Of a stretch of DNA of 47,097 nt, positions 36,565 through 42,065 are shown in pieces. The stretch is from Promethearchaeota archaeon. Lineage in GTDB: Archaea > Asgardarchaeota > Lokiarchaeia > Sigyniarchaeales > SOKP01. The DNA is taken from positions 1 to 47,097 of the forward strand of contig JBHLME010000010.1 in NCBI GenBank assembly GCA_048938445.1, given 5' to 3'. The notes under the pieces are model-generated. The model saw only the letters and a program-made list of their open reading frames with translations, ran no database searches and was not told where the DNA came from. How positions within the stretch are numbered: position 1 is the stretch's first letter; the number at the start of each line of letters is the position of its first letter. The translations under genes were made by a program, and so were the position numbers.

Positions 36565-37839
36565 ATGGGATTAACGATAACAGAAAAAATTCTTAGAGAT
36601 CATTGCAATGAGAAAAATGTATCCGCAGGTGATTTTATCCTTGCTAAAGTTGATAAATGCTTAGCTAATGATATAACAGCTCCAATTGCGATTGATGTGT
36701 TTAAAAAAATTGTTGAGGGTACTGATCGGGGGGTTTTTGATAAGAAAAAAATCATATTAACACCAGATCATTTTGCACCCAATAAGGATGTGGCTTCAGC
36801 AGAACAATGTAAGGTTTTAAGAGAATTTGCTCATGAATATGAGATTGAAAATTACTTTGAGCAAGGAAGGGTTGGTATTGAACATTGTCTCGTACCCGAA
36901 CAAGGGCTTGCTCTGCCAGGTGAAGTATTTATTGGAGCAGATTCTCATACATGCACCTATGGCGCTCTCGGTGCATTTTCCACGGGTGTAGGTTCAACAG
37001 ATCTGGGTGTTGCTATGGCGTTGGGTTCTTGCTGGTTTAAAATTCCGGAGTCAATTAAATTCATCTACTCTGGTAGATTAAATGAATTTGTTTCAGGAAA
37101 GGATTTAATTTTATACACGATTGGTCAAGTTGGTGTTGATGGTGCTACCTATAAATCAATGGAATTTACTGGAGAAATAATAGATGAGCTATCAATGGCA
37201 GGTAGATTTACTATGTGTAATATGGCAATAGAAGCAGGTGGAAAGAATGGTATTATTACACCCGATAAAATTACAGTAGCATATCTAAAAGAAGTAAACA
37301 AAATAAACTACACTAAGTATGAAAGTGATAAGGATGCTGAATACTCAGATGTGATAGAATTTGAATGTTCTGATTTAGAACCTCAAGTGTCATTACCACA
37401 CTTACCTGAAAATGCCAAACCCATCTCTGAGGTAGATGGAATGAGAATTGACATAGATCAATCTGTCATTGGCTCTTGCACGAATGGACGCTTAGAAGAT
37501 TTAAGAATTGCGGCAAAAATACTAAAAGGGAAGAAAATAGCTCCAAATGTTCGATGTATATTGATACCTGGCACTCCAAAGATATACCTTGATGCTCTTA
37601 AAGAAGGACTGATCAAAATTTTTCTGGAAGCAGGAGTAATCGTGTCAACTCCTACTTGTGGACCGTGTTTGGGTGGATTTATGGGCATACTTGCTGCTGG
37701 CGAGAGAGCGATCTCAACTACAAATCGTAATTTTGTTGGTAGAATGGGACATGTAGGGAGTGAAGTTTACTTATCAGGACCCGCAATAGCTGCCGCTTCT
37801 GCTATTAAAGGATATATAACTTCACCTGAGTATTTATGA
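36565..37839 (+). CDS. leuC: 3-isopropylmalate dehydratase/homoaconitase large subunit
   Basis: [33 protein letters not shown]. Confidence 0.9.
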
Positions 37840-37879
37840 AGTAGTAATATCTAAAATAATGAAAAAGGTGTGAAATGTA

Positions 37880-38377
37880 TTGAAAGGAAAAGTAATAAAA
37901 TATAATGAAAGCAATATTAATACCGATTTAATAATTCCTGCGAGATATCTGGTTAAATCAGACCCTGAATTCTTAGCAGAACACTGTATGGAAGATCTAG
38001 ATCCCGAGTTCAATCAAAAAGTAAAAAAATTAGATATATCAATTATGATAGGTGGACCAAATTTTGGAAGTGGATCGAGCAGGGAACAAGCACCATTAGC
38101 TATTAAAACAGCGGGTATTAAATGTGTTTTAGCCCCCTCTTTTGCACGAATCTTTTTTCGAAACGCTATAAATATTGGATTACCGATCTTAGAATTCAGT
38201 GATATTAAGGATATAAATACGGGAGAAAAACTTGACATTGATTTTGAAGGGGGTAAAGTTATCAACTTGACTTCGAAAAAGGAATTTAAGATAAAAGAAA
38301 TGCCTCCTTTTCTTCAAGAGATCATAGCTTCTGAAGGACTAATAAATTTTGCTCGAAAAAAAGTTTTAAAAAATTAA
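37880..38377 (+). CDS. leuD: 3-isopropylmalate dehydratase small subunit
   Basis: INTDLIIPARYL, NFGSGSSREQA, SFARIFFRNAINIG; hinge YLVK is closer to LeuD-type YLV than HacB-type YLRT. Confidence 0.88.
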   Translation: MKGKVIKYNESNINTDLIIPARYLVKSDPEFLAEHCMEDLDPEFNQKVKKLDISIMIGGPNFGSGSSREQAPLAIKTAGIKCVLAPSFARIFFRNAINIGLPILEFSDIKDINTGEKLDIDFEGGKVINLTSKKEFKIKEMPPFLQEIIASEGLINFARKKVLKN

Positions 38378-38419: not shown

Positions 38420-38938
38420 ATGGAATCTTTTAATAAAATGAAGAAAAAATACACTTTCATATTAATAACGTTCCTTATCACGATTTTTTTTCCCTTTTCA
38501 GTTGTATCAGCAAACATGCCTCCTGAAAATTTATACACTAACAGTTCAGCATTTTATGTGTGTGCCTTAAATAAATATGATATCTTAACTTTAAATCTGA
38601 CTCCCTCTGATACTGGAAGTGGAGTTTTTTCCATGTATTTACTCAATGAACGTCCTTTAAATGATAACCTAGTATCAGGTACAATAGTCGCTGAAGGTTT
38701 AAACATATATTATAATGCAACTAACAGGCAAATTTACTATATTAAAATTCATCTTGCGGAGAATGGTCCAGATACATTTCAATTAACAGTCATGGTAAAT
38801 GGTGAATTTGTTCAGTTAGTTCGATATTATATACCTCAAATTCCGGGATTTCCTTTAGAATTCTTACTCCTATCAATAACTATTGGATTTGGTTTAATTC
38901 TATATATCATTAGGAAACGTAAAATGATAATTGAATAA
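38420..38938 (+). CDS. Secreted/surface protein with C-terminal IPGF-TM-basic (Loki-CTERM/PGF-CTERM-like) sorting signal
   Basis: N-terminal signal peptide ending VSA; C-terminal IPGFP + hydrophobic helix + RKRK. Confidence 0.75.
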   Translation: MESFNKMKKKYTFILITFLITIFFPFSVVSANMPPENLYTNSSAFYVCALNKYDILTLNLTPSDTGSGVFSMYLLNERPLNDNLVSGTIVAEGLNIYYNATNRQIYYIKIHLAENGPDTFQLTVMVNGEFVQLVRYYIPQIPGFPLEFLLLSITIGFGLILYIIRKRKMIIE

Positions 38939-39881
38939 CATGGTAAATAAAAAACAAGTTCTTTTCTCATTTTTATTACCTATTATTTTGGGTTTTATCG
39001 TTCCATTTCTTCTTGTATGGTTAATAGAAAGGCGATCATTTTTAATACTTTGGAATCAAAATTTATTTTTTTTAATTTTTGGATTTGTCATATTAGGATT
39101 TGGGCTTGCTCTTTTTATAGAATGTAATTGGTTATTCTACTCTATTGGTAGGGGCACCCTTGTACCAATTACCAAAATCGAAACTAGATCGATGGTAATA
39201 AAAGGTCCTTATAGATATGTTAGAAATCCAATGATAATTAGTGTTATGATAATGTTACTGGCTGAATCACTCTTATTTAATTCAATTAGCATTTTAATAT
39301 ACACGGGTATTTTTTTTATCGTGAATGTCATCTATATGCCATTATCCGAAGAAAAAGGATTAATAGTCCGATTTGGAGATGAATTTCTTCATTATAAAAA
39401 AAATGTGAGAGCCTGGATTCCTAAACTTCATTCATATTCTCCTTCTGTATATGACCTTGAAAATCCACTGATTAAAGAAAAAAAAGTAAACAATCCAGAT
39501 GTCAATGCACAAATCATTGCAGAAAGACTTGCTTATAGTATTGAACGTGGTCGGCAATATAAGAGAGCAGGGCTATATATAGTGCGAAAAGTTATGGATT
39601 CGGGGTTAGTAAAATGCGTCGAAATTCAAATCTTTGGAATAGTCACTATTCAAGGAATTAAAAAATGTTCTATCAAAGCAAGATCCATATCGAAAGATAG
39701 TCAAACTGATCAAAATAATATAGATAAAGGCGTGAGTCAATGTAAAATTGAAATAGGAACTTTAAAAATAATTGTAAAAATAAAGCGACTGAAATTTAAA
39801 CGCAAGATAAAATATAAAATAACAGAAACGTTGGATTTTTTAGACGAGGAATCGGGAGAAAAAAGTATTAATGATGAATAA
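38931..39881 (+). CDS. ICMT/PEMT-family membrane methyltransferase fused to a ribosomal protein uS3 C-terminal-like domain
   Basis: GPYRYVRNPM and EEKGL..RFGDEF..YKKNV.AWIP (ICMT/PEMT); then LENPLI...VNNPDVNAQIIAERLAYSIERG (uS3-like). Confidence 0.8.
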   Translation: MNNMVNKKQVLFSFLLPIILGFIVPFLLVWLIERRSFLILWNQNLFFLIFGFVILGFGLALFIECNWLFYSIGRGTLVPITKIETRSMVIKGPYRYVRNPMIISVMIMLLAESLLFNSISILIYTGIFFIVNVIYMPLSEEKGLIVRFGDEFLHYKKNVRAWIPKLHSYSPSVYDLENPLIKEKKVNNPDVNAQIIAERLAYSIERGRQYKRAGLYIVRKVMDSGLVKCVEIQIFGIVTIQGIKKCSIKARSISKDSQTDQNNIDKGVSQCKIEIGTLKIIVKIKRLKFKRKIKYKITETLDFLDEESGEKSINDE

Positions 39882-40044: not shown

Positions 40045-41235
40045 ATGCCATTTGAAGAACTCAGTAAAAAATTAGCTCAACTCATGAAGGATACCGAAGA
40101 AATTGAGCTAAAAGATGTAGATCTTGTTGCAGAATATCTTGAGTTTGAAATGTTGCCACAAATGATCGCCACGGCAGCTCAAGCTATTGGTCTTCCTGCT
40201 CCTGGAAAAGCCCAATGGACTCCTTCGAAATTAAAGCTTGCTGTTGATTTTCCAGGAGAAATTGAAACTATCCAGTTCATCCGCTCAAAAGGAAAAACGG
40301 TTACCATCGGTGGTGAAAAAGTTCCCCCATTTTATAATTTCCTCGGGCTTGATAAAAGAAATCCTAATCCTCCAGCAGTTACGTACGATGTTTTTGATAC
40401 TATTGATTTCTCACCACCTAAACCTATCAAGCAACAATATGGTGAAGTGTTAGCAAGCCCCCCAGAATGGGCTAAGTTTGCAGTTGACAAATTTAGCGCG
40501 GATTTAATAACATTTCATTCTCTTAGCATAGATCCCGCGATGGGAGATGCTCCTGTTTCTAAATCTGTAAAACTTTTAGAAGATATTCTTCAAACTGTAG
40601 ATGTTCCCGTAATTATTGGTTGTTCTGGTAATAAAAAAAAGGATAAAGAACTATTTGAAAAAACAGCTCCTGCTACCGAGAGCGAAGTCTTAATGTTATC
40701 AGCAGCCGATAAAGCCACATGGGAAGATGTCATCCCCTTAGCAGTAAAATATGACCATAACTGCTTGCTCTGGACTTCTTTAGATCTTAACAATCAGATT
40801 AAGATGAATAAGGACGCAATTGAATTGGGACTTCCACGAAATAGAATCGTGATGGATCCAACTTGCGCCACTCTTGGTTATGGAATGGAATATTCTTTCT
40901 CTATTTACCAACGAATGCGAATAGCAGGTTTATTAGGTGAAAAAGATCTTGCTTACCCAATTAGCGGTGGTACAACAAATGCATGGGGTGCTCGTGAAGC
41001 ATGGATGTCTGAAAAAATCGCACCAGAATGGGGTTTGAGAGAATATAGAGGGCCAATGTGGGAAATAATAAATGCCTTAACCTTAACTCTTGTTGGATTG
41101 GATCTCGCAATGATGTTCCATCCTGTAGCTGCAAAACACGTCAAGGACATTACAGCTCAATTCTTTAAAGAAGTACCAAAAGAATTGGATGAAAAAGGAT
41201 ACTATGATTGGGCTTCAGCCAATCTAAAGCGGTAA
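40045..41235 (+). CDS. cdhD: Acetyl-CoA decarbonylase/synthase delta subunit (CFeSP small subunit)
   Basis: IGGEKVPPF, PPEWAK, VDVPVIIGCSG...KD, MDPT..LGYGMEY, NAWGAREAW, MMFHP. Confidence 0.92.
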   Translation: MPFEELSKKLAQLMKDTEEIELKDVDLVAEYLEFEMLPQMIATAAQAIGLPAPGKAQWTPSKLKLAVDFPGEIETIQFIRSKGKTVTIGGEKVPPFYNFLGLDKRNPNPPAVTYDVFDTIDFSPPKPIKQQYGEVLASPPEWAKFAVDKFSADLITFHSLSIDPAMGDAPVSKSVKLLEDILQTVDVPVIIGCSGNKKKDKELFEKTAPATESEVLMLSAADKATWEDVIPLAVKYDHNCLLWTSLDLNNQIKMNKDAIELGLPRNRIVMDPTCATLGYGMEYSFSIYQRMRIAGLLGEKDLAYPISGGTTNAWGAREAWMSEKIAPEWGLREYRGPMWEIINALTLTLVGLDLAMMFHPVAAKHVKDITAQFFKEVPKELDEKGYYDWASANLKR

Positions 41236-41336: not shown

Positions 41337-42005
41337 TTAAGAAGGAATTAGATCACAAAAATAAAATCGATTGTCTCGCAAAACAATATCGCCAATTGAA
41401 AATGCTATGCTTTTTTTAAATATAGGACCTTCAAATACGAATGAATGGAATTCTCCATTTTCACCACAGGGATCAACATCAGGAGGTAGCTCCCTTAAAA
41501 ATTCCCTGTCATAGAATCTTCCGCAAAAATTTTTATCTAGAACTGATGAGTCAACACATGTGATGACTGCTTTAAAACCTAATTGAATAAATGTAATTGC
41601 AATTTCAAGAGTATCTTTTTTCCAAATTGGGAAGAAGGCTTTCATCCCAATTAAGGATAAATTATTTTCTCGATACATCCTTAGATCCTCTAAGAAAATA
41701 TCTCCAAAAGCAACAAATTTAACTCCTTTATTGTAATATTCCATCAATAATTCTTTCATTTTTGCATCATATTCCTCATTTGAAGCATTTTTTGAAATAA
41801 AGACTTTTTCAAGAGGAATTCCTAAGGATTTCGCTTGTTTTTCAAGCAAAATGGTTCGTACACCATGCATGCTAATTCTATCGTAGTCTTTAGTAATTGT
41901 AGTTAATAAAGCAGATATTTGATAATTAGAACTCTTTAGTAATTTATGTAGTGCCATAGCACTATCTTTTCCCCCGCTCCACGTAAAGAGGATCTTTTCT
42001 TTCAT
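41337..42005 (-). CDS. PP-loop ATP pyrophosphatase (diphthamide synthase/DUF71 family)
   Basis: WSGGKDS, FGDIFL, DPCGENGEFHSFV; ATG at 42005. Confidence 0.88.
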   Translation of the reverse strand: MKEKILFTWSGGKDSAMALHKLLKSSNYQISALLTTITKDYDRISMHGVRTILLEKQAKSLGIPLEKVFISKNASNEEYDAKMKELLMEYYNKGVKFVAFGDIFLEDLRMYRENNLSLIGMKAFFPIWKKDTLEIAITFIQLGFKAVITCVDSSVLDKNFCGRFYDREFLRELPPDVDPCGENGEFHSFVFEGPIFKKSIAFSIGDIVLRDNRFYFCDLIPS

Positions 42006-42065
42006 TAGGTTATTCAAAGTTATTAAACTTTAAAAATACTTAAATTTATTTCTTCCCCCCAAATT

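Follow-up and report, generated by a model that had tools for sequence, protein, structure and literature searches.

Gene and domain organisation

In archaea, few genes are duplicated or recombined as rarely as those of the core ribosomal proteins, and the ribosome and membrane biology of the Asgard archaea bears on the origin of eukaryotes. Here we describe a gene in which a predicted membrane methyltransferase of the ICMT/PEMT family runs, within a single frame, into a diverged copy of the C-terminal part of ribosomal protein uS3. It lies in the Promethearchaeota archaeon assembly GCA_048938445.1 (Lokiarchaeia), in a stretch of 47,097 nucleotides of contig JBHLME010000010.1 that was analysed in full and is called the window below. 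The genome is a 4.6 Mb metagenome bin of 256 contigs, 96.5% complete with 8.2% contamination, and DNA of the window was found in sediment metagenomes, with no RNA data set among the sequencing runs listed as containing it. The frame is open on the forward strand from a TTG at 38931 or an ATG at 38940 to the stop at 39879-39881. The list of open reading frames gives the longer form (38931(TTG)..39881, 316 residues), while from the conserved ATG the whole fused gene spans 38940..39881 and encodes 313 residues plus stop, the form held in the protein collection (P0001). An earlier interpretation of this DNA without database searches, hereafter the sequence-only reading, had proposed that an ICMT/PEMT domain and uS3, from the end of its KH domain through its C domain, share this frame, and the matches of the protein to Pfam PEMT, Pfam Ribosomal_S3_C (S3_C) and the archaeal uS3 model NF003219 bear it out.

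Residues 1-165 (38940..39434, forward strand) make up the methyltransferase domain, as delimited by Pfam, AlphaFold2 (AF2) and the ratio of nonsynonymous to synonymous substitution rates (dN/dS, or w). Pfam PEMT (PF04191) matches residues 51-149 with an E-value of 7.3e-9 and 36.5 bits, above its cut-off of 25, and Pfam ICMT (PF04140) scores 18.1 bits, under its cut-off of 24. In the AF2 model of the full-length protein, four long helices (residues 4-30, 42-69, 95-113 and 116-145) are followed by a short C-terminal one (147-155), with predicted local distance difference test (pLDDT) values mostly of 77-95 and a loop at about residues 71-90 with values of 54-60. Eight columns, G72, T73, G89, Y91, R95, P97, E137 and F145, are invariant over 30 relatives and are, as in this family generally, putative methyl-donor binders. 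Thus, the Pfam score and the predicted multi-pass membrane core with its conserved motif columns place the domain in the PEMT/ICMT family, with a predicted methyltransferase activity. Equivalog level was not reached, either for protein-S-isoprenylcysteine O-methyltransferase (NF040696, 33.2 bits against a cut-off of 160) or for the lipid A methyltransferase LmtA (TIGR04571, 39.2 bits against 325).

The closest known systems on this side are the stand-alone ICMT/PEMT enzymes of Promethearchaeia (P0003-P0009; L006-L016), which one source annotates as Ste14-like protein-S-isoprenylcysteine O-methyltransferases. They are 44-71% identical to the N-terminal 165 residues of the window protein and share both the Pfam PEMT match and the conserved columns. 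However, they are only 171-193 residues long and end 7-20 residues past a WIPK..Y motif, whereas in the window enzyme the ordinary tail has been swapped for about 148 residues of uS3 origin. Since the methyltransferase-only orthologues end so soon after this motif, the insert replaced only the last codons of the enzyme gene.

The appended piece of 148 residues (39435-39878, which defines the piece numbering used below) falls into three parts, all on the forward strand. Residues 166-185 (39435..39494) form a linker that, according to the alignment with the uS3 of the same genome, begins with the last residues of the former methyltransferase tail and continues into a vestige of the last strand of KH (SVYDLENPLIKEKKV); in the AF2 model of the piece its pLDDT is below 50, and residues 1-20 of the piece are disordered. 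Residues 186-283 (39495..39788) correspond to the uS3 C-domain fold of two helices and a four-stranded sheet, as indicated by Pfam, AF2 and Foldseek. Residues 284-313 (39789..39878), identified from alignments, are a remnant of the uS3 C-terminal extension, first basic and then acidic, and are predicted to be disordered (pLDDT about 40).

Homology of the piece to uS3 is visible even in the DNA, as blastn aligns 39443..39787 on the forward strand to the genome's own rps3 with 70% identity over 345 nt (L001 1707-2051). This match begins at 39443 and ends inside rps3, not past its stop codon. At the protein level the piece is 54% identical to the genome's own uS3, and NF003219 aligns residues 166-307 to model positions 65-205 of 229 with an E-value of 4.4e-22. 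Pfam S3_C (PF00189) matches residues 200-284 with an E-value of 1.5e-5; the profile check called for by the sequence-only reading was therefore passed in coverage, which extends over the full profile (1-83 of 83), and failed in score, since 25.9 bits lies below the gathering cut-off of 34.1. The curated uS3 models likewise remain under their cut-offs (NF003219, 78.5 bits against 147; TIGR01008, 65.1 against 150.25). A Pfam scan of the fused protein gave no KH_2 match, and the part of KH that can still be aligned is confined to about 14 residues of its last strand.

The AF2 model of the piece contains helices at residues 25-37 and 42-55 and strands at 59-71, 74-83, 96-104 and 109-118, with mean pLDDT values of 73-91 in 10-residue blocks across residues 21-120, so that the uS3-C fold is predicted to be intact. 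A Foldseek search of the Protein Data Bank (PDB) with this model found only uS3 chains among the 50 matches listed (best E-value 2.5e-8), and a PDB sequence search with the piece led to archaeal uS3 (E-value 1.6e-13). Sequence and predicted structure together indicate that the appended domain shares descent and fold with uS3 C domains.

The pattern of residues kept and lost is uneven. An alignment of 25 rows of true uS3 has 59 invariant columns, of which 38 are kept in the window copy. The losses are centred on the SGKVTSQRAR strand-loop and include K69I, S72I, R74G, A75I and R76K (piece numbering), in agreement with the sequence-only reading, which had noted that the GK..RAR residues were gone. 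Compared with the genome's own uS3, the helix hairpin retains 30 of 37 positions and the strand-loop 11 of 26. Within the hairpin, a K-R pair of the window aligns with R131/R132 of Escherichia coli K-12 uS3 (alignment A6), and its second residue, R44, is invariant in all 8 rows of that alignment. The same column presumably holds yeast R116/R117.

These basic residues have been studied in the ribosome itself. An E. coli R131A/R132A/K135A triple mutant was used in work on the ribosomal mRNA helicase, as described in a portion of PMC6380275, and a portion of PMC6283612 describes yeast R116/R117 as touching mRNA in the entry tunnel.

Junction and origin

The genome's true rps3 lies on another contig (G000:C108), scores 254 bits, and stands in a uS19-uL22-uS3-Rpp29-uS17 row, its product carrying KH_2 (54 bits) and S3_C. 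Meanwhile, the fused gene, intact as a single open frame, lies outside such a uS19-uL22-uS3 row and is flanked by a Loki-CTERM gene and cdhD, as the sequence-only reading had supposed when it placed the gene outside a ribosomal operon. The true uS3 (NF003219; PF07650 plus PF00189) is the source of the appended part, with which it shares the two-helix, four-strand fold and a lineage-specific C-terminal extension that is partly kept in the fused copy. In contrast to the true uS3, the fused copy sits behind a membrane enzyme, has no KH domain, scores below the curated cut-offs and has branches about 10-fold longer. Lacking the KH domain and about a third of the invariant residues, the appended domain, as judged by its sequence, is no longer a ribosomal protein.

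Several observations show that the junction exists outside this assembly. Contigs from an independent study bridge position 39443 with 0 mismatches (X4 record 6, 39180-39494; X5 record 14, 39314-39576), and thus the check for an assembly chimera came out in favour of the gene. Three further fused proteins with the same Pfam pair are present in the protein collection (P0002, P0044 and P0045), and a metagenome contig, L031, encodes a 341-residue orthologue with the identical junction, the 3' end of a CTERM gene upstream and cdhD downstream. The L031 copy scores 56.9 bits for Pfam S3_C and keeps 43 of the 59 uS3-invariant residues, and relative to it and to uS3 the window carries a 27-codon in-frame deletion after the last strand, directly before the tail remnant. 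The GC content is continuous across the junction, with no break. Because its DNA identity to the genome's own rps3 is only 70%, the uS3-like part cannot be a mis-joined piece of that gene; this is the outcome of the comparison with the true rps3 that the sequence-only reading had called for.

A maximum-likelihood tree built from C-domain pieces groups the window copy with that of L031 (97/99) and places the pair inside the clade of the genus's true uS3 (99/99). Their branch lengths are 1.25 and 0.53 on a shared stem of 0.63, whereas the true uS3 branches of this genus measure 0.02-0.18. The two copies also have the derived residues D37E, R43K, A59V and K106E in common. This nesting and the shared derived residues argue for one duplication and fusion event within the genus and show, on phylogenetic grounds, a recent origin inside this Promethearchaeia (Loki-type) genus, followed by evolution about 10-fold faster than that of true uS3. 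Sequence comparison shows how the fusion originated: a 5'-truncated duplicate of the organism's own rps3, which brought along the C domain and the tail as well as the last strand of KH, landed at the 3' end of the methyltransferase gene and took the place of its last few codons. The fusion then passed to at least two species, along with the Loki-CTERM gene upstream and CdhD downstream. As for an origin by retro-copying of the 3' end of an mRNA, the alignments speak neither for nor against it: the homology stops within rps3, and the next gene is not reached.

Selection

We compared the window with L031 by the Nei-Gojobori method (NG86). The dN/dS ratio is 0.088 in the methyltransferase part, a mark of strong purifying selection, 0.37 in the C domain (pN 0.258, pS 0.511) and 0.34 in the 29 codons of the tail, while it is 0.04 in cdhD and 0.49 in the upstream small protein; with synonymous sites near saturation, all of these are approximate and more likely over- than underestimated. 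A rough three-point estimate, to be read loosely because it was calculated from saturated distances, suggests a more relaxed window branch (w about 0.56) than L031 branch (about 0.22). Within the P0002 lineage, amino-acid differences counted by hand in alignment A5 number about 6 for the enzyme and 4 for the uS3-derived part before the tail.

In neutral simulations carried as far as the 31% nucleotide divergence seen between the two sequences, an extension of 147 codons without any stop survived in only 0.0002-0.0034 of the runs (5000 for each setting). The top simulated amino-acid identity was 0.51-0.544, compared with 0.537 observed, which was exceeded in 1 of 6 settings. When the 86 substitutions of the window branch alone were considered, with changes polarised by uS3, the probability of remaining stop-free was 0.003-0.013, and the observed identity was reached in 0-7 of 4000 runs. 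Taken together, these estimates show relaxed purifying selection on the uS3-derived domain in both lineages and support a maintained, co-opted domain, not neutral decay. In this sense, the co-option suggested by the sequence-only reading has held up, with the same junction in a second species, a C-domain dN/dS below one half and a stop-free frame that is rarely produced by neutral change; the dN/dS comparison that it had called for does not support decay.

Between the junction and the methionine of the RKVMDSG motif, the sequence contains no in-frame ATG, GTG or TTG. Therefore, the uS3-derived domain cannot be made separately from the methyltransferase.

Distribution and relatives

A search across 154 genomes of the order found the fusion only in the window's genome (0 of the 153 others), whereas the unfused enzyme occurs at eleven loci in four other genera. 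The wider search for the architecture that the sequence-only reading had called for did yield carriers (P0002, P0044, P0045 and L031); with the window gene included, the fusion is confined to two lineages (four sequences). A scan of the genome contigs with P0002 found no relative. A HMMER search with the uS3-derived piece against 1.84 billion representatives returned 132 proteins, nearly all of which match at about residues 72-185, like normal uS3, and the few exceptions that were scanned turned out to be either uS3 proteins with an N-terminal extension or unverified chimeras containing a piece of FAA-hydrolase or topoisomerase. Two proteins, P0062 and P0128, combine a piece of FAA-hydrolase or of DNA topoisomerase IV with a high-scoring S3_C; they are unverified singletons that may be assembly or gene-calling chimeras and are not used as support here. 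Among the titles and abstracts listed by literature searches, none dealt with uS3 paralogues or uS3 fusions in archaea.

The closest enzyme relative is P0003, an unfused protein with an ordinary tail and with 82% identity to P0002 across the methyltransferase domain. In the methyltransferase tree P0003 groups with the fused P0002 and P0045 (93/85), leaving the window outside, and an approximately unbiased (AU) test did not reject a single fused clade (p 0.109). The trees thus allow either that the fusion arose just after the P0003 lineage split off or that P0003 lost the extension. In both cases, since so close a relative does without the appendage, the enzyme appears to be independent of it. 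We also considered whether the tail of P0003 could be a frameshifted start of uS3; this was rejected, as the other frames of L031 give unrelated peptides.

The tails of P0002 and P0044 end 27 residues early, after a lysine run, compared with that of P0045 (L031 about 1150-1255). A change in the length of an A-rich homopolymer could account for this early end, and such a change may be genuine or an error of sequencing.

Partial uS3 paralogues in a sister genus

Extra 5'-truncated copies of uS3 also occur outside the ribosomal operon in 3 of 54 genomes of the sister genus g11, while none was found among the 42 genomes of genus g12. All three lie on the reverse strand of their contigs: L025 (1932-2498) encodes 189 residues, L028 (328-936) encodes 203, and L026 (2325-3503) encodes 393, comprising an N-terminal part of about 200 residues in which no Pfam family was found, half a KH domain and S3_C. 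Nested among the true uS3 of g11 and apart from the window copy, these paralogues point to an independent origin. Their frames are intact, and their pairwise w values are 0.22-0.28, compared with 0.04-0.08 in the true genes.

L026 resembles the window gene in carrying S3_C as the C-terminal module of a larger protein. However, the g11 copies begin further towards the N terminus, midway through KH, and none is joined to a methyltransferase. The sequence-only reading knew of no precedent for the fusion, a statement to be qualified now that independent partial uS3 paralogues, one of them fused to another N-terminal domain, are seen to exist. These paralogues have lost the same positions as the window (K69, S72, R74, A75, R76, F80, S88, G89 and K106) and kept the hairpin. 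Such convergent losses may mark residues constrained by the ribosome only, or may reflect a common new role for the surface that is left.

In addition, some true rps3 genes of Promethearchaeia contain stop-bearing inserts of 30-31 nt, seen in L030 (G052:C85) at about 1660-1780 and in L029 (G120:C11) at about 1620-1650. The inserts occupy two fixed sites, one after ..PGLVIG and the other after ..LE, before PQIEVEEV. Inner stops or split rows suggest inserts of this kind in 7 of 54 g11 and 2 of 42 g12 genomes, the DNA having been inspected for two. In RNAfold predictions the exons on either side pair with each other and the insert forms a hairpin; this hairpin and a 4-bp helix covary between the two genomes, and the inserts look like relaxed bulge-helix-bulge mini-introns in mRNA. 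A term search of one Asgard tRNA-intron preprint found that mRNA, ribosomal-protein genes and cbf5 are not mentioned there. Exon shuffling at such a mini-intron was considered as a source of the fused copy. The idea was dropped because the 30-nt insert site in the rps3 of other genomes lies 5-6 codons downstream of the start of homology, so that the two boundaries do not coincide.

Neighbouring genes

Upstream of the fused gene, and on the same strand, lies a gene (38420..38938) defined by its open reading frame and a match to NF033507. It encodes a small protein of 172 residues that has a hydrophobic segment at its N terminus and ends in a Loki-CTERM sorting domain. Residues 141-168 match NF033507 with 28.7 bits against a cut-off of 19.9, which agrees with the earlier description of this gene as CTERM-sorted. 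An 8-bp overlap between the two genes had also been reported, on the basis of the first TTG. The relatives P0002, P0003 and L031 all start with MVN.., corresponding to the conserved ATG at 38940. Thus, the TTG at 38931 is probably not the real start, and the overlap is probably not real. The stop of the upstream gene (38936-38938) is instead followed by one base and then by the methyltransferase ATG, and L031, with the homologous 3' end of a CTERM gene upstream, has the identical spacing of stop, one base and ATG.

The Loki-CTERM gene is translationally coupled to the methyltransferase gene, an arrangement kept in L031 and absent beside the methyltransferase-only orthologues elsewhere. On this evidence the two genes may be functionally linked. 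A comparison of the neighbourhoods of the methyltransferase-only orthologues found none that is conserved. Further upstream are subunits of a LeuC/LeuD-type dehydratase (36565-38377, forward strand), which are ordinary metabolic neighbours. On the other side, the delta subunit of CO dehydrogenase/acetyl-CoA synthase (cdhD) is encoded downstream at 40045-41235 on the forward strand, followed on the reverse strand by a Dph6-like ATP pyrophosphatase whose score is under the family cut-off (41337-42017).

Discussion

We consider it probable that a truncated duplicate of the organism's own rps3 became fused to a methyltransferase gene within this genus, has been selectively kept, and now serves as a putative cytoplasmic accessory module that binds RNA or protein. 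The basic N terminus and the basic loops bearing the conserved motifs would lie in the cytoplasm, and since they are placed there, the uS3-derived domain would hang in the same compartment on a flexible linker of about 20 residues. In this position it could act as an accessory module for an RNA or protein partner and would modulate or localise the methyltransferase, while being dispensable for catalysis.

A number of observations weigh against this interpretation. The cytoplasmic placement comes from charge distribution and family knowledge, and not from a computed topology. The AF2 fold of the piece was obtained from an alignment dominated by true uS3 rows, and in the full-length model the C-terminal part reaches a pLDDT of only 29-55, because only four rows cover it. 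In the window, the Pfam S3_C score is under threshold, 21 of the 59 uS3-invariant residues and 27 codons have been lost, and the branch estimate of w is that of a relaxed sequence, drawn from synonymous sites close to saturation. To these may be added the confinement of the fusion to one genome of the order and to two lineages overall, the existence of the unfused P0003 as nearest enzyme relative, and the shortened tails of P0002 and P0044.

Many of the same observations would be expected if the extension were a tolerated passenger, the chief rival explanation, in which it would be a fragment with no function of its own on which selection acts only against misfolding, aggregation or toxic read-through, and which is on a slow path to loss. 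Its rates are fast and asymmetric, the deletion and the residue losses of the window and the shortening of the other two tails look like erosion, the distribution is very narrow, and P0003 stands beside or inside the fused clade (93/85), so that the extension, if P0003 is nested, has been lost once. Yet a stop after codon 165 would remove a passenger at no cost, and both lineages have remained stop-free over about 31% divergence, an outcome with a neutral frequency of 0.0002-0.013. The amino-acid identity is above neutral expectation, the conservation is patterned, with the hairpin retained far better than the strand-loop, and the independent g11 paralogues display the same pattern under purifying selection. 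For these reasons we regard a passenger as an unlikely explanation and retain the view that the module is maintained.

A broader and more specific proposal is that Promethearchaeia have at least twice made a truncated uS3 into an extraribosomal "uS3C-like" binding module, which sheds the ribosome-contact residues and keeps the basic hairpin and part of the tail, and which in this case would link the methyltransferase to mRNA, ribosomes or a uS3-binding partner, for example during synthesis of the Loki-CTERM protein. In its full extent we hold this to be quite doubtful. Narrower still would be a ribosome tether, in which the domain docks on the small subunit or on mRNA in the entry channel and brings ribosomes, such as those that translate the co-transcribed Loki-CTERM gene, to the methyltransferase at the membrane. 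The kept basic hairpin, including the pair aligned with E. coli R131/R132, the partly kept uS3 tail, and the tight coupling to the gene of a sorted surface protein, conserved in L031, all suit such a tether. However, the site is already filled by true uS3 in every ribosome, an intact rps3 being present in the genome; the KH domain and the SGK..RAR loop are gone; and the methyltransferase-only orthologues have no conserved link to a CTERM gene. A tether of this kind thus seems very improbable. Finally, an artefact in which an assembly chimera, a frameshift or a sequencing error joined two genes, as the fragmented and partly contaminated bin and the odd S3_C chimeras among metagenome proteins (P0062, P0128) might suggest, is almost certainly not the explanation, being refuted, as far as assemblies can show, by the repetition of the junction in independent-study contigs, in the syntenic L031 and in two further database proteins, by the 30% DNA divergence of the uS3-like part from the genome's rps3 and by the absence of a break in GC content.

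Precedent for the use of uS3 surfaces off the ribosome comes from the extraribosomal roles of eukaryotic uS3/RPS3, among which a DNA-repair activity has been suggested, as mentioned in a portion of PMC6283612. The eukaryotic case differs in that the whole protein moonlights, whereas here a truncated and diverged copy is covalently joined to a membrane enzyme. The fusion described here is best filed under ribosomal-protein paralogy and domain co-option rather than as a new kind of system.

The fused gene is a young example that can be dated: half of a ribosomal protein that is essential was copied, joined to a membrane enzyme and kept under selection, with an independent parallel in a sister genus. 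It is also a natural experiment that separates the residues of uS3 constrained by the ribosome from those constrained by the fold, and it adds a possible new soluble module to those of Asgard archaea. If the module binds nothing, it would be a clean example of the persistence of a folded passenger domain. If it does bind RNA or a ribosome-associated partner, it would provide a rare physical link from translation to the methylation of membrane lipids or proteins.

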